Shown one piece after another: positions 30,595 to 63,758 of a stretch of 64,000 nt of DNA (its first letter is position 1; the number at the start of each line of letters is the position of its first letter). The position numbers and the translations under genes were made by a program. Where the stretch lies: positions 1,888,001 to 1,952,000 of the forward strand of contig CM000154.2 in NCBI GenBank assembly GCA_000004695.1, in the 5' to 3' direction. The notes under the pieces were generated by a model. That model saw nothing but the letters and a program-made list of their open reading frames with translations. It was not told the origin of the DNA and made no database searches. The stretch is from Dictyostelium discoideum. Taxonomy: Eukaryota.

Positions 30595-30658
<64 letters not shown>

Positions 30659-30757: not shown

Positions 30758-30791
<34 letters not shown>

Positions 30792-30991: not shown

Positions 30992-31023
<32 letters not shown>

Positions 31024-31241: not shown

Positions 31242-31273
<32 letters not shown>

Positions 31274-31916: not shown

Positions 31917-31959
<43 letters not shown>

Positions 31960-32134
31960 TAACTGTCACTGTGGGTTTTCTACACAATAATAATGTATAT
32001 TTGAATGTTTAAACATCCATAATTATCCCCCAAAAATTTTTTTTTTTTTATTTATTTTTCTTTATTAAATTTTATTTTATTTTTATTTTTTTTTTATTTT
32101 TTTTTATTTTTTTTTTTTTTTAATATATGTATCC

Positions 32135-32165
<31 letters not shown>

Positions 32166-33134: not shown

Positions 33135-33168
<34 letters not shown>

Positions 33169-34144: not shown

Positions 34145-34196
<52 letters not shown>

Positions 34197-34405
34197 GGTT
34201 TAAATTTTTTTTTTTTTTTTTTTTTTCCCCCCCCCCCCCCCCTAAAAAAAAAACAAAAAAAAAAAAATTTTTATATAAAAAAATCTCTCAAAAAAAATTT
34301 TTTTTTTTAATCTCCTTTTAAAAAAACGGGGGGGAAAAACCCTTTTTTTTAAAAAATTTTCCAAAAAGGGGGGGATTTAATTTTTTATTTCTCCAAACCC
34401 CCAAA

Positions 34406-34505
34406 NNNNNNNNNNNNNNNNNNNNNNNNNNNNNNNNNNNNNNNNNNNNNNNNNNNNNNNNNNNNNNNNNNNNNNNNNNNNNNNNNNNNNNNNNNNNNNN
34501 NNNNN
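34406..34505. other. Assembly gap (100 N) flanked by low-quality stutter sequence (about 33960-34640)
   Basis: Run of n. Flanks contain cccccccccccccc, ggggggg and similar runs atypical for this genome. Confidence 1.
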
Positions 34506-34888
34506 AAAATTGGGGAATTAAATTTATTATTTTCAAAAATTCCCAAAATTTTTTTTTAATTTAATTTTTTTTTTAAAATTAATTTTTTTTTTAAATTTTT
34601 TTTTTTAATTTGGGTTTTAAAAAAGGGAATTTTGTTTTTTTTTTTTATTTTTGGTTTTTTTTTTTTTATTTTTGGTTTTTTTATATTAATAACAACAAAA
34701 ACTCAACTCTTTGAAATTATTGTATCATGAATATATTATTTTTAAATCATTTTGTTCTATAAAAATATTTTCAGTTGGTATTTTATTTTTAGAAATTATT
34801 TTCTTAGTTTTTTTATTTTTTTTTATTTTGTTTTTTTTAATACATCACCCCCTACCTCAAAATCTCACAATTCAATCAAAAAAAAAAA

Positions 34889-34927
<39 letters not shown>

Positions 34928-35642
34928 CACCCACATATAAATAGTGTTTATTGATCTATTTAAAGAATTTTGTAAATTTGAAAAAAAAAAAATTAAAAAA
35001 AAAAATAAAAAAATAAAAAAATTTTTTAAATTAAATTTTATTTCATCCAAATTGGAAAAAAAAAAAATTATTAACAAAAAGAAAAAAAAAAAATATTGTT
35101 AACAATAATTAAAATAATAATAATAATAAAAATAATAATTTATTTATTTATTTTTTATTTATTTAAATAAATATAAAATATTATTTGTTCGATTAATGAT
35201 AATTATTATTACTTAAATTTATAAAATATACTTATTAATATATATATATATATTAATTTTTATTTTATATTTTATTTTTTTCAAATAAAATTTTTTTATA
35301 TAAAAATAGATTTTTTTTTTTTCATAATTAGAAGATTTAAAAAAAAAAAAAAAAAAAAAAAATTTAAAAAAAAAAAAAAAAAAATTATAATAATAATAAT
35401 ATTTATATTAACATATAAATAATTAAAAATTAGTATTTAATAGGGAAGGGATATATATTATACAACTATAAATTTTTAATAATAATAAATTATAATATTT
35501 TGAAAATAAAAAAAAAAAAAAAAAAGGAGAAAAAAAAAAAAGTCAAATAAATAAATAATATTAAATAATATATAATTAAAAAAAAAAAAAAAAAAAATTT
35601 AATAATAATAATAATAATAATAAAAATTATTAAAATAAAATT

Positions 35643-37769
35643 ATGTTATCAACTCATCATCACCAAGGGAATTCAAGCTCATCTTCATCATCTTCATCCC
35701 CATCACAGACAATTGGCGGATCGGATTTATCAAATATATCAGCACTCCCATTACCATTACCATCTATATTTACAACAGCACAAAACCAAATGAATCCACC
35801 AATTTTATTCCCACCAACTTCATCGTTGTTGGGAGGTTCATCAAACACACCATCATTTTTATTACCACCATCATCTATAATGTCATCAAATGTTTTTCCA
35901 TCTCATGATGGTCAATATCCAGATATGCCAAATATGGTTGATCAATATCAAATACATCCAAATCAAAATCCTCATTATAATTATCAATATCAATTAATGT
36001 TTATGCAACAACAAGCTCAACAAAATCAACCACCACAACAAAATCAACAACAACAACATCACCAACAACAACAACAACAACCACAACACCATCAACAAAT
36101 GCAACAACAACAACATCATCAACAAATGCAACAACAACAACAACATCATCAACAAATGCAACAACAACAACATCACCAACAAATGCAACATCATCAATTA
36201 CAACAACACCAACACCAACACCAACAACAACAACAACAACAACAACACCAACAACAACATCATCAACAACAACAACAACAACAACAACAACATCACCAAC
36301 AACAACAACATCACCAACATAGTCAACCACAACAACAACATCAACACAATCAACAACAACAACATCAACATAATCAACAACAACATCAACAACAACAAAA
36401 TCAAATTCAAATGGTACCACAGCAACCACAATCATTATCAAATAGTGGAAATAATAATAATAATAATAATAATAACAACAATAGTAATAATAACAATAAT
36501 AATAATAATAATAATAATTCACATCAATTAAATAATTTAACATTATCACAAAATAATACAAGTGGTAGTAATACACCATCACCATCAACTAAAGGTAAAA
36601 GAAAACATCATGAAACATCAAATTCAGAGAAAAAAGATTCATCTGGACAAACAATTCCAAAATGTACTCGTTGTAATGAAGCAGCATCATGGAAACATGA
36701 TAAAAGACGTTGGTGGTGTAAAGAATGTAAAAAAGCCTTTACTCCAGGTATTACCAAAATGCAACAAGTACCACAACAAGCACAACTTCAACCATTACAA
36801 AATCATAATCAAATAATACCACAACTTTGGGATTCTCAACAAAATAATAGTTCTCAAAATACTCCACCAACTCAACCACAAAACAATATGAATCAAATCA
36901 ATCATCAACTTTTACAACAACAACATCAACAAGCTCAACTTCAAGCTCATTTAAATTTAACAGCATCAAATCAACAAGTACCACCACAATTACAACAACA
37001 AATCAATGGTGGTTTACCAAATAATAACAATAGTTTAATCACTCAAAATACATTGAATTCATTATCAACCTCTGTATCATGTCCACCTTGTCCATTGTGT
37101 AGAGGTATTTCATCATGGAAACATGATAAAAAGCGTTATTTCTGTAAAGAATGTAAAAAACCATTTACACCTGTTGGTGCAGGACTTTCACCATCATCAT
37201 CACCTTCTTCACCAAAAAAGAAATCAAATATTACACCAATTACAACTTCATCAACATCATCATCTTCTTCAACTCCTTCAATTATAAACAACAACAATAA
37301 CAACAACGCAAATTCTTCTAAAAATAATACACCAAAAAAACAATTATCACCACCACCATCTGTTTTACAATCACCATCTTCCTCTTCAATCTCACAATCA
37401 CCACTTCAATTAAATTATCAAACTCCAACTTACTCACCAAATCCATCACTTCCATCAATTGGTGGAAATTTAAATTCCCTTGCAAATAGTATAAAACCAG
37501 ATGGTGGTATCTTAATATCTGGTCTATCTCCTCCAAAATCTTCATCATCATTAAATAATTTAAATTCTTTCTCAAATACTGGTGCACTTTTATCAAGTAA
37601 TGGAATTAATCTAGCCAATTTAGGTAATCCACTATCTCAATTAAATAAAAAACAAAAAAAGAGATCCGATAAAGATATAAATGATGGTGGTGTTCAAGTA
37701 TTGGTTAGTTGTGTCGATACTAATGTAAATAATTGTTCTTCAATTATACCTGATGGTGATAGTTGGTAA
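35643..37769 (+). CDS. Gln/His-rich protein (708 aa) with two copies of a CX2CX14CX2C zinc-ribbon motif (FCS/MYM-like). Candidate nucleic-acid-binding regulator
   Basis: Repeats KCTRCNEAASWKHDKRRWWCKECKKAFTPG and CPLCRGISSWKHDKKRYFCKECKKPFTPVG. Long (QQQQHHQQM)n-type tracts and Ser/Pro-rich tail. Confidence 0.7.
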   Translation: MLSTHHHQGNSSSSSSSSSPSQTIGGSDLSNISALPLPLPSIFTTAQNQMNPPILFPPTSSLLGGSSNTPSFLLPPSSIMSSNVFPSHDGQYPDMPNMVDQYQIHPNQNPHYNYQYQLMFMQQQAQQNQPPQQNQQQQHHQQQQQQPQHHQQMQQQQHHQQMQQQQQHHQQMQQQQHHQQMQHHQLQQHQHQHQQQQQQQQHQQQHHQQQQQQQQQHHQQQQHHQHSQPQQQHQHNQQQQHQHNQQQHQQQQNQIQMVPQQPQSLSNSGNNNNNNNNNNNSNNNNNNNNNNNSHQLNNLTLSQNNTSGSNTPSPSTKGKRKHHETSNSEKKDSSGQTIPKCTRCNEAASWKHDKRRWWCKECKKAFTPGITKMQQVPQQAQLQPLQNHNQIIPQLWDSQQNNSSQNTPPTQPQNNMNQINHQLLQQQHQQAQLQAHLNLTASNQQVPPQLQQQINGGLPNNNNSLITQNTLNSLSTSVSCPPCPLCRGISSWKHDKKRYFCKECKKPFTPVGAGLSPSSSPSSPKKKSNITPITTSSTSSSSSTPSIINNNNNNNANSSKNNTPKKQLSPPPSVLQSPSSSSISQSPLQLNYQTPTYSPNPSLPSIGGNLNSLANSIKPDGGILISGLSPPKSSSSLNNLNSFSNTGALLSSNGINLANLGNPLSQLNKKQKKRSDKDINDGGVQVLVSCVDTNVNNCSSIIPDGDSW

Positions 37770-37925: not shown

Positions 37926-38069
37926 CCATTTTTTTAATTATTTTAAATAATATTTAAATAATATTTTAAATTTTAATTTTAAATAATAATACCCTTTAAT
38001 TCCCCCCTGTAAATAAAAAAACCCTAAAATGGAAAATGGAAAACCCTGGAAAAAAAAAAATTTTTTTCC

Positions 38070-38115
<46 letters not shown>

Positions 38116-38303
38116 CCTTCCAATATATCAAAAAAAAAAAAAAATTAAAATATTAAATTAACTCAAAAAAAAAAAAAAAAATTAAATAAAAAAAAAAAAA
38201 TAATAATATATATATAAATAAAATAAAAAAAAATTAAAAAAATAAATAGTTTTTTTTATAATAATAGGTTTTTTTTTATTTTTTTTTTTTTTGTTTTTAA
38301 TAT

Positions 38304-38588
38304 TTAAAGTTTATTTCTAAAATCTGGTATTTCAGTTTTATAAATATTTTTTGATTTTATATAATTTAAAGCATTATCAGGCATTAAATATTTAACAGAA
38401 AATTTATTTCTTAATTTTTCTCTAATCTTTGTTGAAGATACATCATTTGTAATATCAGCAGGTATTAAATAAATTCCATCTTTATTCTTTGTTAATATTT
38501 CATTAATTGATATAATATCATTTAAATTTGAACCAATTCTAGGAATTACTGCAATACCAAAATTATCTTTTGATGATAATAAATTCAT
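38304..38588 (-). CDS. Nicotinamide/nicotinate mononucleotide adenylyltransferase (NMNAT), exon 3 (C-terminal, contains the SSTKIR motif)
   Basis: MNLLSSKDNFGIAVIPR...ITNDVSSTKIREKL. Acceptor aaaaataaag|ATG. Confidence 0.8.
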   Translation of the reverse strand: MNLLSSKDNFGIAVIPRIGSNLNDIISINEILTKNKDGIYLIPADITNDVSSTKIREKLRNKFSVKYLMPDNALNYIKSKNIYKTEIPDFRNKL

Positions 38589-38665
38589 CTTTATTTTTAT
38601 AATTATTATTATTTTATTTTATTTTAAATTAATTTTTATTTTTATTTTTTATTTTTAATACATAC

Positions 38666-38959
38666 ATCATTATCAGACCAAAGATTTGGTATATTAAAAG
38701 AACCTAATAAATCAGAACCACAAACCAATATTACATTTACTTTGCAAATGATATTTTTATTGATGTTTAAATAATTTTCAACACTTAATTTGATATGATC
38801 TAATACTTGTCTTGTTGGTGTGAATATTGGTTTGTCAGATTCAAATCTATCCATCATTAACCAATCTGAATCTTCAATTGATAATTCAACCATTGTTGTT
38901 CTATGTGATGATTCAATTAATGTCTTTTTATCATAGCCATCACCAACTGGTGATAAATA
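38666..38959 (-). CDS. NMNAT exon 2 (5' end truncated by the assembly gap): ...YLSPVGDGYDKKTLIESSHRTTMVELSIEDSDW...ILVCGSDLLGSFNIPNLWSDND
   Basis: Matches the conserved SPVGDAYKKKGLI...HR and LLCGADLLESF...PNLW blocks of NMNAT. Donor GAT|gtatgt at 38665. Confidence 0.8.
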
Positions 38960-39059
38960 NNNNNNNNNNNNNNNNNNNNNNNNNNNNNNNNNNNNNNNNN
39001 NNNNNNNNNNNNNNNNNNNNNNNNNNNNNNNNNNNNNNNNNNNNNNNNNNNNNNNNNNN
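38960..39059. other. Assembly gap (100 N) inside the NMNAT gene
   Basis: Run of n. Confidence 1.
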
Positions 39060-39184
39060 TTTTTTTTTTTTTTTTTTTTAATATTATTTGTTTAGATTAT
39101 TAAAAAAAAAAATAAAAAAAATAATAATAGTAATAATAATAATAATAATAAAAAAAAAATAAAACAAATGAATAAATTATTTAT

Positions 39185-39290
39185 TTTATTTTATCTTATA
39201 TTATTTTATTTTATTTTATTTTATTTATAATTTTATTTTATTTTATTTTATTTTATTTTATTTTATTTTATTTTATTTTATTTACCCATC
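39185..39290. repeat. (TTTTA)n microsatellite within NMNAT intron 1
   Basis: ttttattttattttatttta tract. Confidence 0.9.
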
Positions 39291-39406
39291 ATTCTTAAAT
39301 GCATATATGTAATAGGGTTAAATGAACCAGTTCCAACTAATATTAATGGTTTTCTTGAATCATTTATATTTGGTATAGTTAATTTTGAAACTGAGAAATT
39401 ATTCAT
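39286..39406 (-). CDS. NMNAT exon 1 (MNNFSVSKLTIPNINDSRKPLILVGTGSFNPITYMHLRMMG)
   Basis: ATG at 39406. GSFNPITxxHLRM is the NMNAT nucleotide-binding (H/T)xGH-type motif region. Donor G|gtaaat. Confidence 0.75.
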
Positions 39407-40199
39407 TTTATAAAAAAAAAAAAAGATTTGACTGATGTTGTTATTTTAACTTTTCTTAAAAAAACAACTATATAAAATTAGAATTTAATTGAAAAAAAAA
39501 AAAATCAATAGTTTTTAATTTTTTTTTTTTTTATTTTTTTTATTTTTTTTTTTTTTTTCAATTAAATTCGCAGAATTTGTTATTTTTAAGAATGGAATAA
39601 AAAAAAATTAATTAAATTGTTATAAATCTTTTTTTTTGGTTAGTTAATTAAACTATTTTAAAATTATTTTTATCATTTTATTTTTTAATTTGAATTATTA
39701 TTATTATTATTATTGTTATTATTTTTTTTTTTTTTTTTTCATTTTTTTTTTTTAATATTTATTATTATTATTTATTGTTAATTGAAATATTTTTAAACAG
39801 TTCATTAAAATTAGAAATCAAATAAATAAAAAATAAAAAAAAAATAAAAAAAACAATAAAAATATATCAAAGTTAATAAAGAAAATGATATTCACTCACC
39901 GGATAAGCGTAGGATTTAAAAAAAATTATACCTTAAAAATGAATAAATAAAAGATATTAAAAAAAAAATTAAAAAAAAATATATTTATAGATATATCCAT
40001 AAATAAATTATTTATATTAAAAAAAATAAAAAAAAAATTAAAAAAAAAAAAAAAAAATTAAAAAAAAATATTAATTTCATTTTTTTCATTTTCATTTTAT
40101 CACCCTTTTTTTTTTTTTTTTTTTTTTTATCTTTCATGAATATTTGTATTCATATAAATTACATATAAATTTAAACAATAATAAAAAGAATTTAAAACA

Positions 40200-40230
<31 letters not shown>

Positions 40231-40244
40231 TTTATTTTTAAAAA

Positions 40245-41556
40245 ATGGAAGATAATAATAATAATAATAAATTTAAAAATGAGGAAGAATTAAATCCACT
40301 ATCATTTTCTAGACATAGTATTAGTGGCAGTAGTAATAATAATTTCCAAAAACATCAACAACAACAACAACCAGTAAATAAACCACAATCAATATTAAAA
40401 ACACCTACAAATAGAGATTCAGTTAAAGCTAAACCGACATCTCTTTCTTTGTCAACATCTTCAACATCTTCATCTTCATCATCTTCATCATTATCACTAT
40501 CACCTACTTCTAGTTATTCACCTTCAACAATTTCATCAAAAGTTGGCGGAACATCAAAATTATTATCAACATCTGATTTAGTTACACCAATCAAATCTAG
40601 TGCTAATAATAATATAAATTTACCAACCTTTTTAAATGAATCAACACCACTTCCAAGTCAAACACCAGGAACAAGGAATAGAGTTATGATGTCTGATATT
40701 AAACCAACTGTTCATATTTATCCCTCAACACCTATAGATAAAATTAAACAACCAACAACCATTAAACCAAAGAATACAAATGGTGGTCTATTTAATATTA
40801 ATAAATTTTTAAATCGTAGTAATCATTTAAATTTAAATGATACAACAATTATTGATCAAACTATGAATGATAAAAATTCTGATGATGATGATGATGATGA
40901 TGATAATAATAATAATAATGATAATTATACAGAGGATGAAAATAAAAATAAATCATTTTTCTCAAGCACTAGTAGTAAATTTTATAGAAATAATAATAAT
41001 ATAAATAATAATAATAATAATAATATAAATAATAATTATAATTTATCACCAACATCAGAATATTATCCATCATCATCAATATCATCATCATCATCATCAT
41101 CACTATATAAAACAACGATTGGTGGTAGTGATAAAATAATTAAAAAAAGAAAACCAATAATTAGAAAGAAATCATTAATTACAAAAATTAAAGAAACTAT
41201 AAAATATCCAATTAATAAATTAGATAAAATTCAAGAAGATATTGCTACATTTCATGATAATAAATATTATAAAACTTTAATATATTGTTTAGCATTACTA
41301 TTGAATTTAATTCTATTTAGCTATGCAATTGATTTAATTAGTGGTTTATCAATTGCTTTAGTATTATTATCAATTAGTATAATCAATTCAATATTATTTT
41401 TTAAATCATCAAAGAAATCTTATCTCTATAGATTCGAAGGTACTCAATTAGGTCCAAATATGTCAATTGAACAAATTGAATCAATAATTCCTACTAGTGG
41501 TGCTTATGGAAATGAAACAAAAGATAATGTTGTAGTTTTAAAAATTTGGAATCCAA
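40245..41556 (+). CDS. Ser-rich membrane protein, exon 1 (ends in phase 1 at donor gtttgt; otherwise the ORF terminates at 41570)
   Basis: Long ORF with poly-Ser/Asn tracts, a D8 acidic run and a hydrophobic segment IYCLALLLNLILFSYAIDLISGLSIALVLLSISIINSILFF. Confidence 0.6.
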
Positions 41557-41684
41557 GTTTGTATTTTTAAAATTAATAATTAATTAATTAATTAAATAAT
41601 AATTAATTAAATAATTAAATATTAATATCTCTTTTTTTTTTTTTTTTTTTTTTTTTCTTTTTTCTCATACAAATATTTATTTAG

Positions 41685-41809
41685 AATTTCCTTCAAAAAT
41701 TTTATTCAATTTCTTTAGTCCATTACATGTTTTAATGATGATTTTATCAAGTCCTGAATTTGAAAAATTTTTAACTTTTACAATTTTATCAATTATAATT
41801 TCATTAATG
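41685..41809 (+). CDS. Probable exon 2 of the same membrane protein (KFPSKILFNFFSPLHVLMMILSSPEFEKFLTFTILSIIISLM)
   Basis: Acceptor tatttag|AA follows a long poly-T tract. Hydrophobic TM-like coding in frame with exon 1 phase. Donor ATG|gtattt. Confidence 0.35.
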
Positions 41810-41837
41810 GTATTTATTTTTATTTTTTATATTTATA

Positions 41838-41874
<37 letters not shown>

Positions 41875-41966
41875 ATTTATATATATATAATTTAAATTAA
41901 AATAATATATATTAACCTTTGTGAAAAAAAAAAAAAAAAAAAAAAAAGTTTTATTTCTTTGGTGAG

Positions 41967-42320
<354 letters not shown>

Positions 42321-42346
42321 TAATAATAATAAAACTTGTAAATATT

Positions 42347-42377
<31 letters not shown>

Positions 42378-42721
42378 ATTTCCCATTTGTAATTGAGATT
42401 TTTTATTTTTTTTAAAAATATTATCTATATATTTTAAAATTTTTAATTTCATCAATTTCAATACCTTGTTTTCTATTTATTTCATTTTGTTCTTCTTGTA
42501 TTCTAATTTTTAAATTCTTTTTCTTTTGTTTTGGAGTATGATTGAATTCAATTACATTTGGGAAAGTGATAAAAAAGACTTTTTTTTTTTAAAAAAAATA
42601 ATTGCAAAATAAAAAATAAATTAAAAAAAAAGGTAAAGTTTAATTGTTAATAGTGATTTTCACAAATTATTTTTTTTATTATTATCATTATTTTTTTTTT
42701 TTTTAATAATAATAATTATTA

Positions 42722-42846
42722 TTATTTAAATACACATACCTTTACTAATATTATTGCACTAAAGACAGATACTAAACCAGCAGGGAAAAATTTACCAGAA
42801 TTTACAAATCTCATTCCCATTATAATTAAAAGTACCAATGATAATG
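42722..42846 (-). CDS. TMEM14-family small membrane protein, exon 2 (ALSLVLLIIMGMRFVNSGKFFPAGLVSVFSAIILVKVCVFK-stop)
   Basis: Matches the TMEM14 C-terminal helix region (…MGMRFYHSGKFMPAGL…). Acceptor aattttag|CA. Confidence 0.7.
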
Positions 42847-42974
42847 CTAAAATTTATATTAAAAATAAATAAATAAAATGAATATTTAATTTTATTAATT
42901 AATTGATTGATTTAAATAATATATATATGTGTGTGTTGTTTTAATATTTTTTTAAAAATTAAATAAATAATTAC

Positions 42975-43149
42975 CCATTGTTAATTGTGTACCATTCTTT
43001 TTATTGGTGGTAGTAAGGTTAGCACTATAACCAACTAATAAACCACTAAGTAAACCCATGATAAGAGATGGCATTGAATTTGCTTTTAAGTAACCAATCA
43101 ACCCACCAATTGCAAGTAAAATTGCATATGCATAAACTAATGTTGTCAT
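42975..43149 (-). CDS. TMEM14-family protein, exon 1 (MTTLVYAYAILLAIGGLIGYLKANSMPSLIMGLLSGLLVGYSANL...)
   Basis: Matches the TMEM14 N-terminal helices ([30 protein letters not shown]). Donor G|gtaatt. Confidence 0.7.
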
Positions 43150-43529
43150 TTTCTTTTCTTTTTTTTTTTTTAAGTATCTTTTTCAAATTATTATTTTTTT
43201 TTTTGTGATTAAAAATTTTTAATAATATAAAAAAAAACAAAAATAAAAAAAAAAAAAATTGATGATGATTTTTTTGATTTTTAATTTGTAAAAATAAAAA
43301 AAAATAAAAAAAATAAAAAAAAAAAAAAAGAACTGTTGGGAAAAGTCAAAAAAATCATATGATATTTGTCATTAATTTCAAAATAAAATAATAATTTTAA
43401 AAATAATTATATTTATGCGTTTTAGAAAATTCACAAAGGAGTTTTTTTTTTTTTTTTTTTTTTTTTAATGTAAACAAGTTTTACATTTTATTTATTTATT
43501 TAATTATTTATTTATTTTTTATATTATAA

Positions 43530-43564
<35 letters not shown>

Positions 43565-43769
43565 TCACATAACCTGTTTGAAAAATTCAACTCCTACCAT
43601 AAGAACCTTATAAAAAAAAAACTCCTTTGTGGTTACCTTACATTTAATTTTTAAAAGTTAGGGAAAAAAAAAAATAAAAAAAAAAAAAATGAAAAAAATG
43701 GTAAGAAATATGCAACTAACTCCCGATTATTATTTTTTTTTTTTTTTTTTTTTAATACTTTCAACAGGT

Positions 43770-43804
<35 letters not shown>

Positions 43805-43953
43805 AAAAATAAAAAAATTAATTAATTTATCTTTGATTAAAAAAGATGATCGGATAAAATTCAAAGCTTAAAAAAAAAAAAAACCCTCTAAAAGTAAAAG
43901 GAAATACTTCTTTTATTTTAAACTGATAAAAATCCGAAAAGGACCCGAAAGAG

Positions 43954-44007
<54 letters not shown>

Positions 44008-45040
44008 TTTTTTCCCCTTTTTTATTATAAAAGCTTGTCGCCAGAGAAAAATAAAAAAAAAAAAAATAAAAAAACCCGATAATCTCAGATCTGTTGAAAT
44101 GGTAATAAAAGGTTCATAAAAAAAAAAAAAAAAAAAATATCTAATTTACGTTGCAAATTGGGCAATTAACGACGCGTCACTTGTTTTTTTTTTTTTTTTT
44201 TTTTTTCGTGTGATTAATTAACAACATGATTAAAAAAATAAAATGAAAAAAAAAAATAAAATAAAATAAAATAAAAAAAAAAATAAAAAAAATTCTACAA
44301 CCTTGTAAATTAAAAAAAAAAAAAAGGTGGGCATAATTATCAAACTTGGTCCACTTTTCGTAAATTTTTTAAAATTTTTTAAATTTCGTACTATGCGGAA
44401 AAGTCTCTCTTGATTTTTTTTTTCTTTTTTTTTTATACAAAATTTTTTTTCATTTTTTGATAGTAAAAAGATATTTTCATCGAGGCATAATCGAAAAAGT
44501 GGATGGTAGATCCCAGTTAATCGCGATTAAGTTGATTTTTTTTTTTTTTCTTCACTTTTTTTTCACTTTTTTTTATTTTCTTTTTTTTTTTTTTTTTTTA
44601 ATTTTTATTTTATTTTATTTCACAATATTAGGTCGAGTCAACAATTAGATAAACACATTTTAGTGTATTCATAATCTTCTTTTTTTTTTTTTTTCTTTAT
44701 TTTTTAAAATCAAAAAAATCAAATAAAATAAAATTATTCATTTAAATTGCATTTAATAAAAAAAATAAAAAAAATAAAAAAATTAAAAAAAAAATAAAAT
44801 CTAAAAATAGAAAACTATAAATAAAAATTTTGACACCAAACAGAGAAAAAAATAAAAAAAAAAAAAAATAATAAAAAATTATTTTCAAACCAACTTACAA
44901 CACATTACAATTAAAAATAAATAACCTCATATAGTTTATTTAATCCTACTCTCATATTTTATTTCTACAAATTTAAAATAGTCTCAAAATCAATTTTCTA
45001 TTGGTTATTCAAATAATAAAAACAAAAAAAAAAAAAATAA

Positions 45041-45078
<38 letters not shown>

Positions 45079-45711
45079 AAAACTTTCACAAATATACAAC
45101 GAACCTACCAATTTAAGAATAAAATATCTAGCTATATAAGCGAATTATTCACTTTTTTCATATAAATCAATAATCAATAATTAAAAGAATAAAAAAAATT
45201 TAAAAATTTAAAAAATATAAAAATATAATAACAAAAAAAAAAAAAAAAAAAAAATTTAAACATAATAGTAATAAATATTGAATAGAAAAAATAAACAAAA
45301 AAAAAATAAAAATAAATAAATAAATAAATAAAATAATAAATATATAAATAAATAAATAAATAAATAAATATATAAATAAATAATAAATAAATAAATTAAA
45401 TACATTAAATAATTAATTAAATAAATAAAAATAAATAAAAATAAATTAAATAAAATAAATAAATAAATAAATAAATTAACACAAATAAATATATAACTTA
45501 AAAATTAAAAATAAAATTATTAAATAGGAAAATAACAAAAATAATAGATAAAATAAATATAATTAAACTAAAATAAAATAAATTATACCAAACAAAAACA
45601 AAATAACAAATAAAATAATAAAAAGATATTAAAATAAATTAAAAAAAAAATTAAAAAAAAAATAAAAAAAAAAAAAGATAATTTGAATCAAAAATAAATT
45701 GGTTGATTGGG

Positions 45712-45765
<54 letters not shown>

Positions 45766-45768
<3 letters not shown>

Positions 45769-46884
45769 TTAACTCAAGATGAACATAGAGAGGCATGTAG
45801 AGTTTACATGCAAAAATATAGAAGTAAACCAGAGAATAGAGAAAAGATAAGACAACAAAATGCAGAATATAGAAAAAGAAAGAAGCAAGAATCAATTAGA
45901 CAAGTTACAGAGATTGGATCATTAGAAACTACTCTCGATAGTCAAAACTCTAGAATCAGTCAATTGGAAAAACAATTGATTGAATCAAATTTTAAAGTTA
46001 ATTTATTTGAAAAAGAAAAATTAATACCAAAAAATTATTTAAATATTATCAACACTTTAAGATTACAATTAACCAATGCTCAAAATGAAATTGAAGAACA
46101 AAAGAATACAATTTCATTCAATCATCAACAACAACAATCACTTCAACATCAATTACAATCTTTACAATTACAACAACAACAACAATTGGAATTAATAAAT
46201 GCTTATAGTGGTGCCACTAATAATAATAGCAATAATAATTTAACATCACCATCTTCAACTAGTTCATTTTCATTACCACCAACTCCAACTTCTTCAAATG
46301 TTCCATTACAACCATCATTTCAAAGTTCATTCTCTGCTATGAATAGTTTAACAAATGAACAACTTCAACCACAATCACAATCACAATCACAATCACAATC
46401 ACAATCACAATCACAATCACAATCACAATCACAATCACAACAACAACAACAACAACAAAAACAATCACAAAATGTAAATAAAAAACAAAAGATAGTTGGA
46501 TTATTTAATCAAGAATCTAGTCCATCCTCGTCATCATCATCACCATCATCATTTTCAAGTCCACCATCATCTCCTTCACTTCAATATCTTCCATACTCTC
46601 CAGCTTTACCAAATTCAATGACAAATTCTCCATCACCTACTCCAAGTGTAAGCGGTGGTGGCGGTAGTAGTGCTGTATCAACTCCACAAATTTCTTCAAA
46701 TTATTCCAATACAAGTACTGGTAGTTTATCCTCTCTAGTTCCTTTTGAAGAAAATGGCTCAAATATTGTTTCATTTAAACAAACTAATCATTTCACTCTA
46801 GATCTCTTATGTGAGGTACTTCAAAGCGAAAAATCTTTACAGCATACCACCATCACCTTTCCAAGAAAAAAGAAATTTTGGTGA
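45766..46884 (+). CDS. bZIP-like transcription factor (basic region REKIRQQNAEYRKRKKQ followed by a heptad Leu repeat) with (QS)n and Ser/Pro-rich low-complexity C-terminus
   Basis: ATG at 45766 follows a 60-nt poly-A tract. The track's upstream extension is a poly-K artefact. N-x2-AE-YR-KRKK fits the bZIP basic motif, and L/L/L spaced every 7 follows. Confidence 0.45.
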
Positions 46885-54799: not shown

Positions 54800-56203
54800 T
54801 TAGTTAAAATTTTTGGAAAAAAATTGAGAGAGCTTCGCAGCAATTTCAATAATACTTACAGTCCAGCCTTTAACAAAATTGTAGTCAGGGTAGTTTGCAA
54901 TTGGGCCAATGGCAGTAACTGCTGGTGAAACATCACGAAGAAGGGTAGATGCAACACGTTGAACATCAGCAACTGTGATTTCATTAATACGTGTGTATAC
55001 CTCAAATGGTGATAAACGACGACCTAAAGTTAAAATTTGACGACCAATGCCTTCGCAAACTTTACTGGTACCATCGTATTGCATTAATGTGGTAGCTAAA
55101 AGTTTTTGTTTGTTACGTTCTACCTCATTTTTATTGCAACTAGTTGCGATTCTTTGCCATTCCTTCAACATTTCAGCAACTAAATCATCAACACGTTCTG
55201 GTTGACAAACACCATAGTTACCGAAAAGACCTGTATCTTGATAACAAGTGAAAAAGGTAGAATAAGATTCTGCAAGATCTTCAGTGGCAACAATTTCACC
55301 AAGGTTTGATGCAATGTTTTTACCGGCGGCAATACCACGATTCCAGTTACCAATCATAGTTTGAATTAATTCTAAAACAAAGTAATCTGGATCAGTCCAT
55401 GGAAGGGCTCTAACAGCAACGGCAAAATGAATCAATGGTTGTTCATCATCACGGACACGGAGTTCTGAACCAATAAAGTCATTGGTGATTGCGGCTCTCT
55501 TTACATCTTTAGAAACTTGTGACATCTTTACGTTTGCGAATTTCTCTTTAACTTGTTCAACGAGTTGTTCATGGTTAACTGCACCAGCAGCAGAGATAAC
55601 TAAACGATCACCAGTATAATTTTCATTGATAAATTCTTGAATTTGTTCACGAGTAATTGATTTAATATTTTCGACTGGACCTAAAATGGTTCTACCTAAT
55701 GCTGAACCTTGGAAAGCGGCGGCGTGTAATTGATCAAAGACAACTTCATCTTCTTTGGATTGAATATAATCGTTTTCACTGAGGATGGTGTCACGCTCTT
55801 GTTCAATTAATGAGGTTTCAAATTTACTATTTTGTAAGATATCAGAGAGGATATCAACGGCATTTGGTACGTTATCTTTTAAAACTTTCATGTAGTAAGC
55901 ACTGTGTTCACGACTAGTGAATGCATTTAAACTACCACCCATATTTTCAATTTCAGTTTCAATTGATTGTGGTGTTGGACGTTTGGCTGTACCTTTGAAA
56001 ATCATATGTTCTAAAAAGTGTGCTACACCATTATTCTTATCAGTTTCATAAACTGAACCACTATCAACCCAAACACCTACACTTGCAACTTCACCATATG
56101 TTTGTTCTGTTGCAACTCTAATACCATTTGATAATGTTGTAATTTTAGTTTCTGGTGAAATCTTTAAATATGATGGGTCAACTGTTTTTCTTGAAAATGA
56201 TCT
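54800..56203 (-). CDS. mppB: Mitochondrial processing peptidase beta subunit (M16 metallopeptidase; inverted-zincin HxxEH). Main exon; the initiator ATG is probably in a separate upstream micro-exon (56486-56488)
   Basis: GVAHFLEHMIFKGT (HxxEH), NAFTSREHSAYY, and MPP-beta-like N-terminal segment SYLKISPETKITTLSNGIRVATE. An in-frame TAG sits immediately upstream of the acceptor ttttag|AGA at 56204-56205, so no Met lies in this exon before the HxxEH region. ATG|gtgtag at 56488-56483 is in phase. Confidence 0.85.
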   Translation of the reverse strand, partial: RSFSRKTVDPSYLKISPETKITTLSNGIRVATEQTYGEVASVGVWVDSGSVYETDKNNGVAHFLEHMIFKGTAKRPTPQSIETEIENMGGSLNAFTSREHSAYYMKVLKDNVPNAVDILSDILQNSKFETSLIEQERDTILSENDYIQSKEDEVVFDQLHAAAFQGSALGRTILGPVENIKSITREQIQEFINENYTGDRLVISAAGAVNHEQLVEQVKEKFANVKMSQVSKDVKRAAITNDFIGSELRVRDDEQPLIHFAVAVRALPWTDPDYFVLELIQTMIGNWNRGIAAGKNIASNLGEIVATEDLAESYSTFFTCYQDTGLFGNYGVCQPERVDDLVAEMLKEWQRIATSCNKNEVERNKQKLLATTLMQYDGTSKVCEGIGRQILTLGRRLSPFEVYTRINEITVADVQRVASTLLRDVSPAVTAIGPIANYPDYNFVKGWTVSIIEIAAKLSQFFSKNFN

Positions 56204-58095: not shown

Positions 58096-59490
58096 ATGTC
58101 AGAAGCAACTATTGTTGAATTATTAAAAAGATTAGATCAAGCAACTACTCGTTTAGAAGCAGTTGAAAAATCAATTGCATCAGGTGTTGCATCATCATCA
58201 TCATCATCATCACCATCAAGTGGTGCAGCTGGTCCATCATCAGCATCAGTTAAGGAATTCCAAAATTTAGTTGATCAACATATTACACCATTTGTTGCTC
58301 TTTCAAAGAAATTAGCACCAGAAGTTGGTAATCAAGTTGAACAATTAGTTAAAGCCATCGATGCTGAAAAGGCCTTAATCAACACTGCATCACAAAGTAA
58401 AAAACCATCTCAAGAAACTTTATTAGAATTAATTAAACCATTAAATAACTTTGCCGCTGAAGTTGGTAAAATTAGAGATAGCAACCGTTCCTCAAAATTC
58501 TTTAACAATCTCTCTGCTATCAGTGAATCAATTGGTTTCCTTAGTTGGGTTGTAGTTGAACCAACTCCAGGTCCACATGTTGCAGAAATGAGAGGTTCAG
58601 CTGAATTCTACACTAATCGTATCTTAAAAGAATTCAAAGGTGTTAATCAAGATCAAGTTGATTGGGTTTCAAACTATGTAAACTTCCTTAAAGATCTCGA
58701 AAAATATATTAAACAATATCATACCACCGGTTTAACTTGGAATCCAAAAGGTGGAGATGCTAAATCTGCTACACCAGCACCAGCTTCATCAGCACCAGCC
58801 GCCCCAGTTGCACCAGCTGTTTCATCCACTCCAGTTGAATCAAAGAAAGGTCCAGGTTTAGGTGCAGTTTTCGGTGAACTTAGCAAAGGTGATGGTGTTA
58901 CCAGTGGTTTAAAAAAAGTTACCAACGATATGAAATCCAAAAATTTCACCGACAAATCATCAGTTGTTAAAGCTGCTGATACTAAAGTCGCCAAAGTTGA
59001 TGCTCCATCTAGACCAGCCGTTTTTGCTCTCCAAGGTAACAAATGGTCCATTGAATATCAAGTTAACAACAAAGAAATTGTCATTGCCGAGCCAGATAGT
59101 CGTCAAACTGTTTACATTTTCCAATGTGTAAACTCTTTAGTTCAAATCAAAGGTAAAGTTAATGCAATTACTCTTGATGGTTGTAAAAAGACTTCAATCG
59201 TTTTCGAAAATGCCATTTCCTCTTGTGAAGTTGTCAATTGTAATGGTGTTGAAATCCAAGTCACTGGTCGTGTACCATCAATTGCTATCGATAAGACAAG
59301 TGGTTGTCAAATTTATCTCTCTAAAGATTCTTTAGAAACTGAAATCGTCTCTTCAAAATCATCTGAAATGAATGTTTTAATTCCAGGTGCAACTGAAAAT
59401 GATGATTTAGTTGAATTAGCTATTCCAGAACAATATAAAACTTCTGTTAAAGGTAATAAATTACATACTGAATCAACTTCACATATTTAA
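58096..59490 (+). CDS. cap: Adenylyl cyclase-associated protein (CAP/Srv2), 464 aa
   Basis: N-terminal helical domain, central Pro/Ala-rich region (PAPASSAPAAPVAPAVSSTP), and C-terminal CARP beta-helix (VFALQGNKWSIEYQVNNKEIVIAEPDSRQTVYIFQCVNSLVQIKGKVNAITLDGC...). The 464-aa length equals what I recall for Dictyostelium CAP. Confidence 0.9.
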   Translation: MSEATIVELLKRLDQATTRLEAVEKSIASGVASSSSSSSPSSGAAGPSSASVKEFQNLVDQHITPFVALSKKLAPEVGNQVEQLVKAIDAEKALINTASQSKKPSQETLLELIKPLNNFAAEVGKIRDSNRSSKFFNNLSAISESIGFLSWVVVEPTPGPHVAEMRGSAEFYTNRILKEFKGVNQDQVDWVSNYVNFLKDLEKYIKQYHTTGLTWNPKGGDAKSATPAPASSAPAAPVAPAVSSTPVESKKGPGLGAVFGELSKGDGVTSGLKKVTNDMKSKNFTDKSSVVKAADTKVAKVDAPSRPAVFALQGNKWSIEYQVNNKEIVIAEPDSRQTVYIFQCVNSLVQIKGKVNAITLDGCKKTSIVFENAISSCEVVNCNGVEIQVTGRVPSIAIDKTSGCQIYLSKDSLETEIVSSKSSEMNVLIPGATENDDLVELAIPEQYKTSVKGNKLHTESTSHI

Positions 59491-62276: not shown

Positions 62277-63758
62277 ATGCAAGAATTACTTTATCAAAAT
62301 TTAAATGATAAAAATGAATTAAAAGTTGAATCACCAAATTTAAATAGTTTTAATAATAGTAATAATAATAATAATAATTATAATAATAATAATAATAAAA
62401 TTTTAAAAATTTTAAAAATAATTTATTATAAATTAAAATATTATTTTAAAAGTTTTAAAATATTTTTAAAAAATAATTTAAAATTAATTTTAAAAAGAAT
62501 TTTTGGTCAATTATGTTTTTTAGCATTAATTTTTGGAATTATTACACCAATTTCAATTTATATTTATAATAATTCACCAAGTAAATATCTTAGTAGTGAA
62601 TTATTATTTTCACCAGAGAATTCAACTTATTCACCAATTTTACAAAATATTTCAATTTATGATCAACAATATTTTCCAAATCAATGGGATGATGTAAATG
62701 TTTTATTGGATACTCATTCACATACTTATTATTCAGACGGTTCATTATCACCAGAAGAGAATATAAAATGGCATATTTTAAATGGATATAATGTTATGTT
62801 TATGACTGATCATAATCAAGTCTATGGTGGATTAGTTGGTATGAAAATTGCACAAGAGAAATATTCCGATAAAATATTAGTTATACCAGGTATTGAGTGG
62901 ACAAATTGTAGATGTCATTTAAATTTAATTGGTATAACAGAGAATGTACCTTTAATAAAGTATCCAACAGATGAAGAAATTAAAAATTTAATTGATTTAG
63001 TTCATTCAAAAGGTGGTCTAGTTATATTGAATCATTATCCATGGAGTAGTTGGTCAGGTTTAGATCAACCTTCAATTCAACAATGGTATGATTGGGGTAT
63101 TGATTTTTTGGAAGTTGCAAATCAATATACATTTGATTATCAAGGTATGATATTTTGTAAAAATCATAATCTTCGTTATGTTAGTGGTTCAGATTTTCAT
63201 TATTATCAAAGAGCATATGCTTGGACAGTTTTTAATATACCTGAATTAGGTAACACTGGTAAAATACCAACTCAAGAAATGGTAATGTCAACCCTCTTAA
63301 ATACTTCAACTAAAACTTCATTTGCTTTTGATCCAGTTGCAAGTAATACAATTATGGTTGAATTTCAATTTACAAAATTTAATCCAACTTGGATTTTCCT
63401 TTCACCTTGGATTTATTTGGGTGGTTTCTTTCATAGTTTTTTCGAATTAAAAAAAGGAATGTATAGTTTTGTTGATGGTAGTTGTACTGGTCAAACTCTA
63501 GATATTCATTCAAAAGAAATTTCTTGTTTAATTTTTTGGATTTTTTTAATTTTCTTTTTAATTCATTTTTTAAATATTTTAATTTTAATTTTAAAAAATT
63601 TTTTATTAAATTTATTTAAAAAAATTAAAAATTTTTTAAAATTAAATAATAAAATTAAAACACCAAAATTTAAAAGTAAAAATTTTAATTTAGATAATAG
63701 TGAAGAATTAGTATCAACAAATGAAATAAATAATTTTAAAATAAGTGAAGATTTTTAA
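62277..63758 (+). CDS. Membrane-anchored PHP-domain (polymerase/histidinol-phosphatase-like) metal-dependent phosphoesterase, 493 aa
   Basis: PHP motifs in order: LLDTHSHTYYSDG (motif I), MFMTDHN (II), IPGIEWT (III), VILNHYPW (IV), VSGSDFHYY (V). N-terminal TM LCFLALIFGIITPISIYIY and C-terminal hydrophobic tail CLIFWIFLIFFLIHFLNILILIL. Confidence 0.7.
   Translation: MQELLYQNLNDKNELKVESPNLNSFNNSNNNNNNYNNNNNKILKILKIIYYKLKYYFKSFKIFLKNNLKLILKRIFGQLCFLALIFGIITPISIYIYNNSPSKYLSSELLFSPENSTYSPILQNISIYDQQYFPNQWDDVNVLLDTHSHTYYSDGSLSPEENIKWHILNGYNVMFMTDHNQVYGGLVGMKIAQEKYSDKILVIPGIEWTNCRCHLNLIGITENVPLIKYPTDEEIKNLIDLVHSKGGLVILNHYPWSSWSGLDQPSIQQWYDWGIDFLEVANQYTFDYQGMIFCKNHNLRYVSGSDFHYYQRAYAWTVFNIPELGNTGKIPTQEMVMSTLLNTSTKTSFAFDPVASNTIMVEFQFTKFNPTWIFLSPWIYLGGFFHSFFELKKGMYSFVDGSCTGQTLDIHSKEISCLIFWIFLIFFLIHFLNILILILKNFLLNLFKKIKNFLKLNNKIKTPKFKSKNFNLDNSEELVSTNEINNFKISEDF

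Follow-up and report, generated by a model that had tools for sequence, protein, structure and literature searches.

Excerpts of the published accounts (PMC6616362, PMC5636811) describe a site of nine residues holding a trinuclear metal centre as the hallmark of active PHP domains. The structures closest to the protein considered here, DDB_G0288779 of Dictyostelium discoideum, are TM0559 of Thermotoga maritima (PDB 2anu) and BVU_3505 of Bacteroides vulgatus (PDB 3e38). Both are compact bacterial 'predicted metal-dependent phosphoesterases' with 18-23% identity to our protein, available as structural-genomics entries without an assigned function, and both lack its two transmembrane (TM) helices, juxtamembrane helix and Cys hairpin. 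The closest functionally characterised structures are RNase AM (YciV/TrpH; PDB 7ug9 and 9etk) and the 3',5'-nucleotide bisphosphate phosphatase Cv1693 (PDB 2yb1). These enzymes are cytosolic and soluble, and carry between the sixth and seventh ligands an insertion domain that is missing in DDB_G0288779. In TrpH-type proteins this domain binds the 5'-phosphate of the nucleotide.

The best curated sequence model for DDB_G0288779 is that of the carbaryl hydrolases CehA and McbA (NF038032), which are much larger bacterial proteins with a synthetic carbamate as substrate. McbA is periplasmic, has an N-terminal TM region and requires the histidines of its PHP domain, and as such is a precedent for an extracytoplasmic PHP hydrolase (PMC8292978). 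A second precedent is Sb-PDE of Sphingobium sp. TCM1, which has been characterised experimentally as a Sec-secreted phosphodiesterase with a PHP domain, active outside the cytoplasm. It is thiol-sensitive, being inhibited by reducing agents, and its authors suggest a possible essential disulfide (PMC5460133). The likeness to our protein, drawn from the published description, lies in the same logic of an outward-facing domain with a conserved Cys pair as proposed here; Sb-PDE is bacterial and leaves the cell via a cleavable signal peptide, whereas DDB_G0288779 is anchored by two TM helices. Heimdallarchaeial proteins (e.g. MCE7748230.1) have the same order of N-terminal TM helix, PHP domain, juxtamembrane helix and C-terminal TM helix, all nine ligands and the same predicted orientation, at 30-41% identity over most of the protein. 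They differ in having neither Cys211 nor the hairpin that carries Cys403, lack the long tails of low complexity, and measure about 350 aa against 493 aa.

The gene lies in a window of 64,000 nucleotides of D. discoideum (contig CM000154.2, positions 1,888,001 to 1,952,000 of the forward strand), which is the whole stretch of DNA that was analysed. Its open reading frame runs from an ATG to a TAA stop, is preceded by an in-frame stop 18 nt 5' of the start codon, and has a translation that matches the deposited protein DDB_G0288779 without a difference. Since databases already label the protein 'PHP domain-containing', the domain itself is no new finding. The literature search returned nothing on DDB_G0288779 or DDB_G0293864, nothing combining PHP, Dictyostelium and transmembrane, and nothing linking the PHP family to Asgard; the Heimdallarchaeum genome paper makes no mention of the PHP family. 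In the literature searched, a family of PHP hydrolases with a membrane helix at each end and a predicted non-cytosolic catalytic domain, ranging from amoebae to early fungi and with Asgard counterparts, is seemingly undescribed. On balance, we regard DDB_G0288779 as probably an ancient, vertically inherited hydrolase with a trinuclear metal site, facing outward, doubly anchored, most likely acting on phosphoesters and having an affinity to Asgard proteins.

Features of DDB_G0288779, with positions counted from the first letter of the window
Feature	Residues	Position	Strand	Basis and remarks
Complete single-exon CDS	493 aa plus TAA stop	62277..63758	+	ORF listing
Low-complexity poly-Asn tract	20-40	62334..62396	+	Sequence; pLDDT <50; predicted disordered
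Basic Lys-rich helical segment before TM1	41-74	62397..62498	+	Predicted cytosolic
TM helix 1, signal-anchor	~75-97	62499..62567	+	Hydropathy
Linker from TM1 to PHP barrel	98-140	62568..62696	+	Sequence, model; sequons N98, N115, N124
PHP catalytic barrel	141-320	62697..63236	+	Nine metal ligands plus Cys211
C-terminal subdomain past last metal motif	321-369	63237..63383	+	Sequence, model; N342 sequon
Conserved aromatic juxtamembrane helix FLSPWIYLGGFFHSFFE	370-386	63384..63434	+	Alignment, model
Eukaryote-specific beta-hairpin insert, GMYSFVDGSC with Cys403	387-411	63435..63509	+	Family comparison
TM helix 2	~412-438	63510..63590	+	Hydropathy peak 2.81; within modelled helix 412-459
Basic low-complexity C-terminal tail	439-493	63591..63755	+	Sequence; predicted cytosolic

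The protein has the distorted (beta/alpha)7-barrel fold of the PHP superfamily, and the core of its AlphaFold2 model mostly exceeds a pLDDT of 90 (values fall below 50 from residue 461 onward). The PHP motifs listed in the initial annotation are all there in the correct order: HSHTYYSDG (H147, H149, D154), TDHN (H179), GIEWT (E207), NHYP (H253) and GSDFH (D306, H308). A ninth ligand, H214 in NCRCHL, had been overlooked. Their significance is upheld by a narrow pass against the Pfam PHP profile (PF02811; E 2.7e-6, 28.2 bits versus a gathering score of 26.4, residues 145-249 only), and paralogue P0003 (Dictyostelium has only two paralogues in this family) and the Heimdall sequence P0015 likewise clear the gathering score. 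The hydrophobic segment proposed on each side of the metallohydrolase is also confirmed, with Kyte-Doolittle peaks of 2.22 for TM1 (19-residue window) and 2.81 for TM2. What had been called a C-terminal hydrophobic 'tail' is indeed hydrophobic, but its continuation by 55 mostly basic residues marks it as a true TM helix and not a tail; these Lys-rich residues also rule out reading the segment as a GPI-anchor signal. The poly-Asn stretch near the N-terminus, at residues 24-40, is present as noted before. It is lineage-specific, being missing from non-Dictyostelium homologues in the alignment. The 'domestication' read into it does not hold, since the two-anchor architecture is, judged across the family, ancestral and not a Dictyostelium addition.

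An N-terminal TM helix is found in most full-length members. In our protein the Lys-rich segment before it falls within a modelled helix (residues 38-98), and residues 60-79 have a net charge of +5. At 321-325 the family as a whole has a sequon hot-spot, which lines up with the subdomain past the last metal motif, although DDB_G0288779 itself has no sequon at that spot. The juxtamembrane helix is modelled as such by AlphaFold2 and is kept in eukaryote-type and Heimdall-type sequences alike.

The nearest homologues are eukaryotic, with members in every genus of Dictyostelia and in Mastigamoeba, Thecamonas and Chromosphaera. Fungal homologues span the range between chytrids and early-branching ascomycetes (Chytridio-, Blastocladio-, Zoopago-, Mucoro-, Mortierello- and Glomeromycota, plus Saitoella and Tortispora), and the TM-PHP-TM layout is common to the eukaryotic homologues. 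Eukaryote-type clusters make up about 80 of the best 150 in an exhaustive HMM search. The named members, in a database in which about one quarter of proteins is named, belong to Amorphea only (Amoebozoa, Apusomonadida, Ichthyosporea and Fungi); none was seen among the named sequences from animals, plants, SAR or excavates. Several eukaryote-type clades carry no taxon name. A marker consisting of Cys211 and a hairpin insert with Cys403 is common to dictyostelid, fungal, apusomonad and ichthyosporean sequences. Its two parts are together present in 92 sequences and together absent in 88, occurring in all named eukaryotes and in no named prokaryote. The eukaryotic members cohere as one group because they have this pair and insert in common, and comparison with the prokaryotic sequences shows the insert as the derived state. 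Overall, the homology searches delineate an uncharacterised PHP family across amoebae, fungi and relatives, and not a recent bacterial import.

Among prokaryotes, a scan with one peptide pattern taken from the family (which may bias the outcome) yielded 38 loci, of which 27 are named Asgard, 19 of these Heimdall, and three are bacterial. Two closed Heimdallarchaeum genomes (CP084166, CP084167) are among the Asgard carriers. A pattern-free HMM search puts approximately 30 of 54 prokaryote-type clusters nearest to Asgard sequences, and with an HMM built from eukaryotes only the Heimdall versions rank top. Judged by these searches, the closest prokaryotic relatives are in Asgard archaea, chiefly Heimdallarchaeia, and not in bacteria. 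Asgard forms are diverse, including soluble, two-anchor and multi-TM proteins from Heimdall, Loki, Thor, Hel and Sigyn.

Phylogenetic analysis was restricted to distance methods, for which long-branch attraction is possible. A neighbour-joining tree of 186 sequences (100 bootstraps) has a backbone support below 30%, at which midpoint rooting is meaningless. With the marker columns excluded, the best tree split holds 81 of 81 eukaryote-type sequences on one side, against at least 57 misplaced sequences with random labellings. Quartet tests place the groups in the order (multi-TM/Bathy-like)-Eukarya-Heimdall-(Loki/Thor, bacteria), in which eukaryotes stand between two archaeal groups and are not nested in Heimdall; the Asgard label of the multi-TM group stems from one named sequence, and the genomic context of its members P0168 and P0227 gave no added taxonomic certainty.

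Such a distribution would date the family back at least to the ancestor shared by Amoebozoa, apusomonads, Holozoa and Fungi, with vertical inheritance since. It might further be argued, as a tentative reading that we hold to be plausible rather than probable, that the family was inherited from an Asgard-archaeal ancestor, in which case a doubly anchored PHP phosphoesterase, at work already on the outside of the archaeal membrane, was kept on the topologically equivalent luminal or extracellular face in early eukaryotes, gained its disulfide-stapled hairpin, and disappeared afterwards from animals, plants and most Dikarya. A later horizontal transfer, either from Asgard to an early amorphean or from a eukaryote to Asgard, is a doubtful but serious competitor. 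It would account for the purely amorphean range of the named members and for eukaryotes not being nested in Heimdallarchaeia, and the family is evidently transferable given that it entered bacteria at least two times. However, the breadth and architectural diversity in Asgard and the derived eukaryotic insert argue against a eukaryotic origin, most database proteins are unnamed such that the Amorphea-only range may be apparent, and vertical descent plus losses yields the same pattern.

With respect to the reaction, the nine ligands (H147, H149, D154, H179, E207, H214, H253, D306 and H308) do not vary across an alignment of 13 sequences that took in dictyostelids, a yeast and Heimdall-type sequences. 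The set HHDHEHHDH is whole in 158 of the 191 family sequences, the exceptions being mostly fragments. A pseudoenzyme reading was ruled out by the invariance of all nine ligands. They would build the trinuclear metal centre of an active PHP enzyme, and the site points to hydrolysis that depends on metal, with a phosphomonoester or phosphodiester as the probable target. The relationship to the CehA/McbA model appears real (NF038032; E 9.8e-22, residues 145-310), although 77.8 bits, a near miss of the cutoff of 80, do not confer membership. Matches to histidinol-phosphate phosphatase (NF004981; 26.3 versus 117) and to the PolX PHP domain (NF006375; 23.3 versus 426) remain far below the cutoffs and cover the first two motifs only.

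The CehA/McbA match raises the option of a hydrolase for carbon esters or carbamates, or even of an enzyme that uses the PHP scaffold for a reaction other than hydrolysis. We consider this improbable: the score stays under the cutoff, carbaryl is a synthetic pesticide and hence an unlikely ancestral substrate for a family of archaea and eukaryotes, and the full nine-ligand trinuclear site is, according to excerpts of PMC6616362 and PMC5460133, the signature of phosphoester hydrolysis.

The orientation in the membrane was called with the positive-inside rule plus indirect indicators. The mean number of K+R, in eukaryote-type (55) as well as prokaryote-type (41) sequences, falls from approximately 3 ahead of TM1 to 1.3 behind it, and rises from 1.1 ahead of TM2 to 3.4-3.9 behind it. 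Such a distribution predicts, in eukaryotic and archaeal members, that both tails are cytosolic and that the PHP domain is turned towards the lumen or the exterior. TM1 and TM2 would thus leave the two short basic tails in the cytosol and the segment of about 310 residues between them, comprising the compact PHP barrel and the conserved juxtamembrane helix, on the non-cytosolic side, i.e. in the secretory or endosomal lumen or at the cell surface. There the enzyme would hydrolyse a substrate outside the cytosol and near the membrane, probably a phosphomono- or phosphodiester. In eukaryotic members Cys211 and Cys403 probably form a disulfide, which would staple the added hairpin to the barrel. 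The overall density of N-glycosylation sequons in the PHP domain does not separate the two types (0.91 eukaryote-type versus 1.08 prokaryote-type per 100 aa). Sequon hot-spots at fixed positions, which like the conserved Cys pair speak for this topology, are occupied in 48-67% of the sequences, where the background is about 1%, but are ambiguous on orientation, as the sequon at 321-325 is kept also in TM-less Loki and Thor versions.

A membrane-tethered PHP domain on the cytosolic side, with nucleotides or RNA as substrates as for RNase AM and Cv1693, is distinctly improbable. These two enzymes may be the closest functionally characterised structures, and the NCBIfam models of nucleoside bisphosphate phosphatase and RNase RNM are weakly matched. 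The scores, however, are far under the equivalog cutoffs (45.8 bits versus 375 for RNase AM/RNase RNM, NF047791; 31 versus 400 for 3',5'-nucleoside bisphosphate phosphatase, NF041577, where the match again covers the first two motifs only). Also, the stretch between H214 and H253 is only 38 residues long, which leaves no space for the insertion domain; in the phmmer alignment to 7ug9 the matching second stretch lies approximately 90 residues further along the chain. Eukaryotic and prokaryotic members alike have a positive-inside distribution that predicts the reverse orientation, and a conserved Cys pair is unusual in a cytosolic domain.

That a bacterial PHP gene moved horizontally into the Dictyostelium lineage and was then 'domesticated' with TM helices and poly-Asn is scarcely credible, for although PHP domains are mostly bacterial by number (18,654 profile matches at E<=1e-3, mostly outside the present subfamily), the three best-matching solved structures come from bacteria and close copies are present on a few bacterial MAG contigs (L018, L024, L028), the closest homologues are eukaryotic and found across Amorphea, the TM-PHP-TM layout is common to archaeal relatives and thus not added in Dictyostelium, the bacterial copies score below the Heimdall copies with the eukaryote-only HMM, the composition and context of the gene are native, and the Cys/hairpin marker unites the dictyostelid sequences with those of fungi, apusomonads and ichthyosporeans. 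The initial annotation had regarded the domain as mostly bacterial and possibly acquired by horizontal transfer, a suggestion to be given up if the nearest neighbours were widely distributed eukaryotic proteins. This is largely what the searches returned, with Asgard sequences as the closest prokaryotes. A look at foreign-gene features likewise gave native Dictyostelium base composition (with a GC of 0.07 in the N-terminal tail) and ordinary nuclear genes in the flanks. A 'bacterial-looking' domain in a protist is not evidence for horizontal transfer, tempting though this mistaken reading is.

The inventory of Asgard-derived eukaryotic genes consists mostly of cytoskeletal, trafficking and information-processing proteins. 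On confirmation of vertical descent, this inventory would gain a membrane-surface enzyme. Should the inheritance from an Asgard ancestor hold true, it would mark a continuity of archaeal cell-surface biochemistry with the eukaryotic secretory or endosomal lumen, and the substrate could be sought among extracellular organophosphates (phosphate scavenging) or membrane-proximal phospho-lipids or phospho-glycans. With only two paralogues, Dictyostelium offers a tractable test of the fate of an archaeal surface enzyme in the endomembrane system.

Finally, gene context was considered for 23 Heimdall-type loci, in which no neighbour gene is conserved across lineages. As a basis for function it was therefore rejected, and it is kept as a weak hint of phosphate scavenging. 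An M28 peptidase lies downstream in seven of the 23 loci, and the DUF1295 and CarS-like neighbours first seen in L001 and L002 recur in only three. PiT (PHO4) together with PhoU_div is found upstream only in L010, L011 and L030, which constitute one sublineage with 100% support.

Both ends of the reading frame proposed in the initial annotation are exact, and its translation is identical at every residue to the deposited protein DDB_G0288779, for which the databases give only the annotation 'hypothetical protein / Polymerase/histidinol phosphatase N-terminal domain-containing protein'. The gene consists of a single exon and has an in-frame stop 18 nt upstream of the ATG. The ORF has a GC content of 0.21, rising to 0.285 in the PHP core, and its flanks have 0.10-0.155, in a window of 13-30% GC. 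The neighbours are ordinary nuclear genes (CAP and an M16 peptidase). Base composition and gene context give no sign of a recent arrival.

Positions of the genes and loci discussed (L, nucleotide locus or contig carrying a family member; P, family protein sequence)
Sequence	Position	Strand	Feature	Details
Window	62277-63758	+	DDB_G0288779	ATG to TAA, 493 aa
Window	58096-59490	+	CAP gene (adenylyl-cyclase-associated protein)	464-aa ORF; CAP_N-CM, CAP_N, CAP_C, E 1e-60 to 1e-64
Window	54800-56005	-	M16 peptidase ORF	401 aa; Peptidase_M16 and M16_C domains
Window	10001-18000, 30001-36000, 38001-46000		Low-GC stretches	GC 0.13-0.16
L004	973-2698		P0017	Short metagenomic contig
L005	61-1786		P0017	Short metagenomic contig
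L010	32-1129		PHP locus	PiT/PhoU_div-adjacent
L011	2725-4432		PHP locus	PiT/PhoU_div-adjacent
L030	4001-5098		PHP locus	PiT/PhoU_div-adjacent
L018	5899-6912		Full-length two-anchor copy	Bacterial MAG contig
L024	5827-6885		Full-length two-anchor copy	Bacterial MAG contig
L028	3097-4143		Full-length two-anchor copy	Bacterial MAG contig
L048	364-1950		P0227	Multi-TM group

About 2.8 kb separate the CAP gene from the PHP gene downstream of it. In the M16 ORF the Peptidase_M16 match begins at profile position 40 of 149, so an upstream exon is probably missing (owing to an intron or a different start). The low-GC stretches show a persistently negative GC skew; they are extreme even for Dictyostelium and probably represent intergenic or repeat-rich DNA.

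DDB_G0288779 carries a PHP domain, and all five motifs named in the initial annotation are found in it. The proposed Pfam search gives a narrow pass for PF02811 (28.2 bits, E 2.7e-6; gathering score 26.4), with the match confined to the N-terminal half. Residues 145-310 are matched by the NCBIfam CehA_McbA_metalo domain model (E 9.8e-22; 77.8 bits, just below its cutoff of 80). An AlphaFold2 model built from a 13-sequence alignment has a mean pLDDT of 79.7, with the barrel mostly above 90. A sixth position absent from the initial list, H214 in NCRCHL, completes a set of nine ligands (H147, H149, D154, H179, E207, H214, H253, D306 and H308). These are invariant in alignments reaching from Dictyostelium to Heimdallarchaeia, and 158 of the 191 family sequences keep the ligand string HHDHEHHDH whole, the exceptions being mostly truncated contigs. 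Passages in three publications present a trinuclear centre built by nine His/Asp/Glu ligands as the hallmark of catalytically active PHP domains (PMC6616362, PMC5636811, PMC5460133); a pseudoenzyme is therefore unlikely. In P0009 (DICPUDRAFT_74921), one of the three D. purpureum paralogues, the second metal-binding His is replaced by Gln (HQDHEHHDH) and no TM helices are detected; this copy may be degenerating or non-catalytic, or its gene model may be wrong.

Two strong TM segments are seen by hydropathy, at residues 79-97 (peak 2.22) and 421-439 (peak 2.81), and the AlphaFold2 model draws both as long helices. The N-terminal TM helix of the initial annotation is thereby upheld, but its C-terminal hydrophobic tail is a membrane-spanning helix, because 55 Lys-rich residues come after it; these also rule out a GPI signal. 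The stretch from the barrel to TM2 contains a conserved aromatic helix (FLSPWIYLGGFFHSFFE, residues 370-386) and a beta-hairpin with GMYSFVDGSC. Basic residues are concentrated upstream of TM1 and downstream of TM2. Counts of K+R in 15-residue flanks show this pattern across the family members that have a single TM on either side: eukaryote-type sequences (those with Cys211, Cys403 and the hairpin insert, n=55) average 3.1 before and 1.35 after TM1, and 1.2 before and 3.4 after TM2, against 2.8, 1.3, 1.1 and 3.9 for prokaryote-type sequences (n=41). By the positive-inside rule both tails are predicted to be cytosolic and the PHP domain to lie on the opposite side of the membrane. In eukaryotes it would thus face the lumen or be exposed at the cell surface, and in archaea it would be exposed to the outside. 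Experimental precedents for extracytoplasmic PHP hydrolases are Sb-PDE, a PHP phosphodiesterase that is secreted by the Sec route and that reducing agents inhibit (PMC5460133), and McbA, a periplasmic enzyme that depends on its PHP histidines and has a TM region at its N terminus (PMC8292978).

Cys211 and Cys403 are both present in 92 sequences, both absent in 88 and mixed in 11 (mostly fragments), a co-occurrence that, indirectly, fits the disulfide to be expected in an oxidising compartment. An exception is P0142 of Mastigamoeba balamuthi, which keeps Cys403 and the hairpin and has Gly at 211. Sequons (N-x-S/T) are enriched over a background of about 0-1% at reference residues 321-325 (51-57% of eukaryote-type and 65-67% of prokaryote-type sequences) and 219-223 (48% of eukaryote-type sequences). 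For an outward orientation these hot-spots are suggestive only, because the 321-325 motif is retained in TM-less Loki/Thor versions and missing from DDB_G0288779, which has its sequons at N98, N115, N124 and N342.

In a first homology search the hits were DDB_G0293864, a D. discoideum paralogue with 69% identity, and proteins of D. citrinum, D. dimigraforme, D. purpureum (3 copies), Polysphondylium and Acytostelium, followed by the yeast Tortispora and metagenomic proteins. An exhaustive search of 1.84 billion representatives with a family HMM yielded 238 clusters at E<=1e-30, rising to 3096 at E<=1e-10; many matches spanned almost the whole profile including the TM regions. Named members comprise further Amoebozoa (Cavenderia, Tieghemostelium, a second Acytostelium lineage and the archamoeba Mastigamoeba balamuthi), the apusomonad Thecamonas trahens, the ichthyosporean Chromosphaera perkinsii and numerous Fungi: Dinochytrium (Chytridiomycota), Catenaria (Blastocladiomycota), Coemansia, Kickxella, Linderina, Martensiomyces and Mycoemilia (Zoopagomycota), Chlamydoabsidia (Mucoromycota), Gamsiella (Mortierellomycota), Gigaspora (Glomeromycota), Saitoella (Taphrinomycotina) and Tortispora (Saccharomycotina). 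Judged from these sequences the family spans Amorphea; animals, plants, SAR and excavates were not seen among the named members, names being carried by only about a quarter of database proteins. The closest homologues are thus broadly distributed eukaryotic proteins, which together with the native composition and context corrects the earlier reading of a bacterial fold possibly acquired by horizontal transfer. On L004 and L005 the eukaryote-type P0017 is followed after 10 bp by a gene resembling Rpc25 of RNA polymerase III, implying a eukaryotic source with a very compact genome; the P0017/P0044 clade is taken as eukaryotic because of this adjoining gene and a EukProt member (P0216, 54-63% identity).

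A scan of 185,579 prokaryotic species (one genome each) confirmed 38 loci: 19 in Heimdallarchaeota, including the closed genomes of Ca. Heimdallarchaeum aukensis and Ca. H. endolithica, seven in Promethearchaeota/-ati (Loki), seven in 'uncultured archaeon', one each in Thorarchaeota and Bathyarchaeota, and three on bacterial MAG contigs (Halioglobus and two Christensenellales). These counts are biased by the use of a single peptide pattern from an alignment already holding Heimdall-type sequences. Two checks are free of this bias. Among 54 prokaryote-type clusters from the pattern-free HMM search, about 30 are nearest to Asgard and about 9 to bacterial sequences, with Heimdall, Sigynarchaeota and Helarchaeota among the names recovered. 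With an HMM of eukaryote-type sequences only, Heimdall-labelled proteins rank top (about 260-285 bits), above bacterial, Loki, Thor and Sigyn versions (about 239-247 bits). Heimdall proteins also share with DDB_G0288779 the order of N-terminal TM, PHP domain, juxtamembrane helix and C-terminal TM, whereas Loki/Thor versions are short and lack TM helices. A further group of about 500-580 aa (P0020, P0155, P0161-P0179 and P0227) has 4-7 N-terminal TM helices ahead of the PHP domain; its Asgard label comes from one named sequence, a Helarchaeota MAG protein with 40% identity over about 530 residues, and the gene context of P0168 and P0227 made this placement no firmer. The copies on bacterial contigs (GC 0.64 for Halioglobus, 0.40 for Christensenellales; relatives at 49-56% identity) suggest sporadic transfer into bacteria or mis-binned contigs. 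In four Heimdall MAG loci (L013, L014, L019 and L030) the tblastn match of about 260-370 aa crosses reading frames and the starting-frame ORF is only 18-257 aa, which points to assembly-error frameshifts or pseudogenes.

Every named eukaryote has Cys211, Cys403 and the hairpin insert and every named prokaryote lacks them, an indel-type character that would unite the eukaryotic sequences independently of any tree. In a neighbour-joining tree of the PHP core with these columns removed, one split holds 81 of 81 eukaryote-type sequences on the same side, together with 23 prokaryote-type sequences, mostly of the multi-TM group; at least 57 sequences are misplaced under random labellings. Since backbone bootstraps were poor (<30%), quartets were used; as in the tree, these are distance methods in which long-branch attraction between divergent groups is possible. 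With eukaryote, Heimdall, Loki/Thor and multi-TM sequences, the split joining Heimdall to Loki/Thor and eukaryotes to multi-TM takes 72%; with a bacterium as the fourth member, eukaryote plus Heimdall takes 53% (plurality in 91 of 100 column bootstraps). This suggests an unrooted chain of (multi-TM and Bathy-like), eukaryotes, Heimdall and (Loki/Thor, bacteria), in which the eukaryotic versions would not be nested within the Heimdall versions. With archaeal groups on both sides, any root outside eukaryotes implies an archaeal source. By similarity and distribution the Asgard affinity of the family is well supported, and either vertical descent or early transfer may lie behind it.

DDB_G0288779 and its PHP label are already in databases. 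We found no paper on it, its paralogue or the family, and none tying PHP-family phosphoesterases to Asgard archaea; the family-level picture (double anchor, predicted outward orientation, Amorphea spread, eukaryote-specific Cys hairpin and Asgard affinity) appears undescribed. Many Asgard-related eukaryotic families are known already; this one, its function being predicted and its deep phylogeny tentative, is a tractable candidate for an enzyme of Asgard origin at the surface or in the lumen.

With regard to function, DDB_G0288779 is best read as a trinuclear-metal hydrolase whose most probable activity is that of a phosphomono- or phosphodiesterase. It would act on the non-cytosolic face and close to the membrane, because it is tethered at both ends and has the aromatic juxtamembrane helix. 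As the most economical guess at its role, it would scavenge phosphate from organophosphates outside the cell or in the lumen; a membrane-proximal phospho-lipid or phospho-glycan may be the substrate instead. A basic residue conserved at position 212, between E207 and H214, may contact phosphate; it is Arg in the eukaryote-dominated alignment and either Lys or Arg in the Heimdall-type sequences examined. Hydrolysis of a carbon ester, as by CehA/McbA, is a live rival to the phosphoesterase reading. The nearest structures, TM0559 and BVU_3505, are both without known function; among characterised enzymes, RNase AM and the pAp phosphatase Cv1693 come closest. The latter two are cytosolic and have an extra domain inserted between ligands six and seven, where H214 and H253 of DDB_G0288779 are only 38 residues apart. 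Membership of either group is rejected on this spacing and on equivalog scores far below cutoff (45.8 against 375 for RNase RNM, 31 against 400 for nucleoside bisphosphate phosphatase), and their substrate specificity is therefore not transferable.

No conserved operon was found around the PHP gene in 23 Heimdall-type loci. In one Heimdallarchaeial sublineage only, a PHO4/PiT phosphate transporter (230 bits) and PhoU_div/DUF47 (63 bits) lie beside it, possibly forming a phosphate-scavenging module of that clade. An M28 peptidase is found downstream of the PHP gene in 7 of the 23 loci, and DUF1295 and CarS-like neighbours recur in three.
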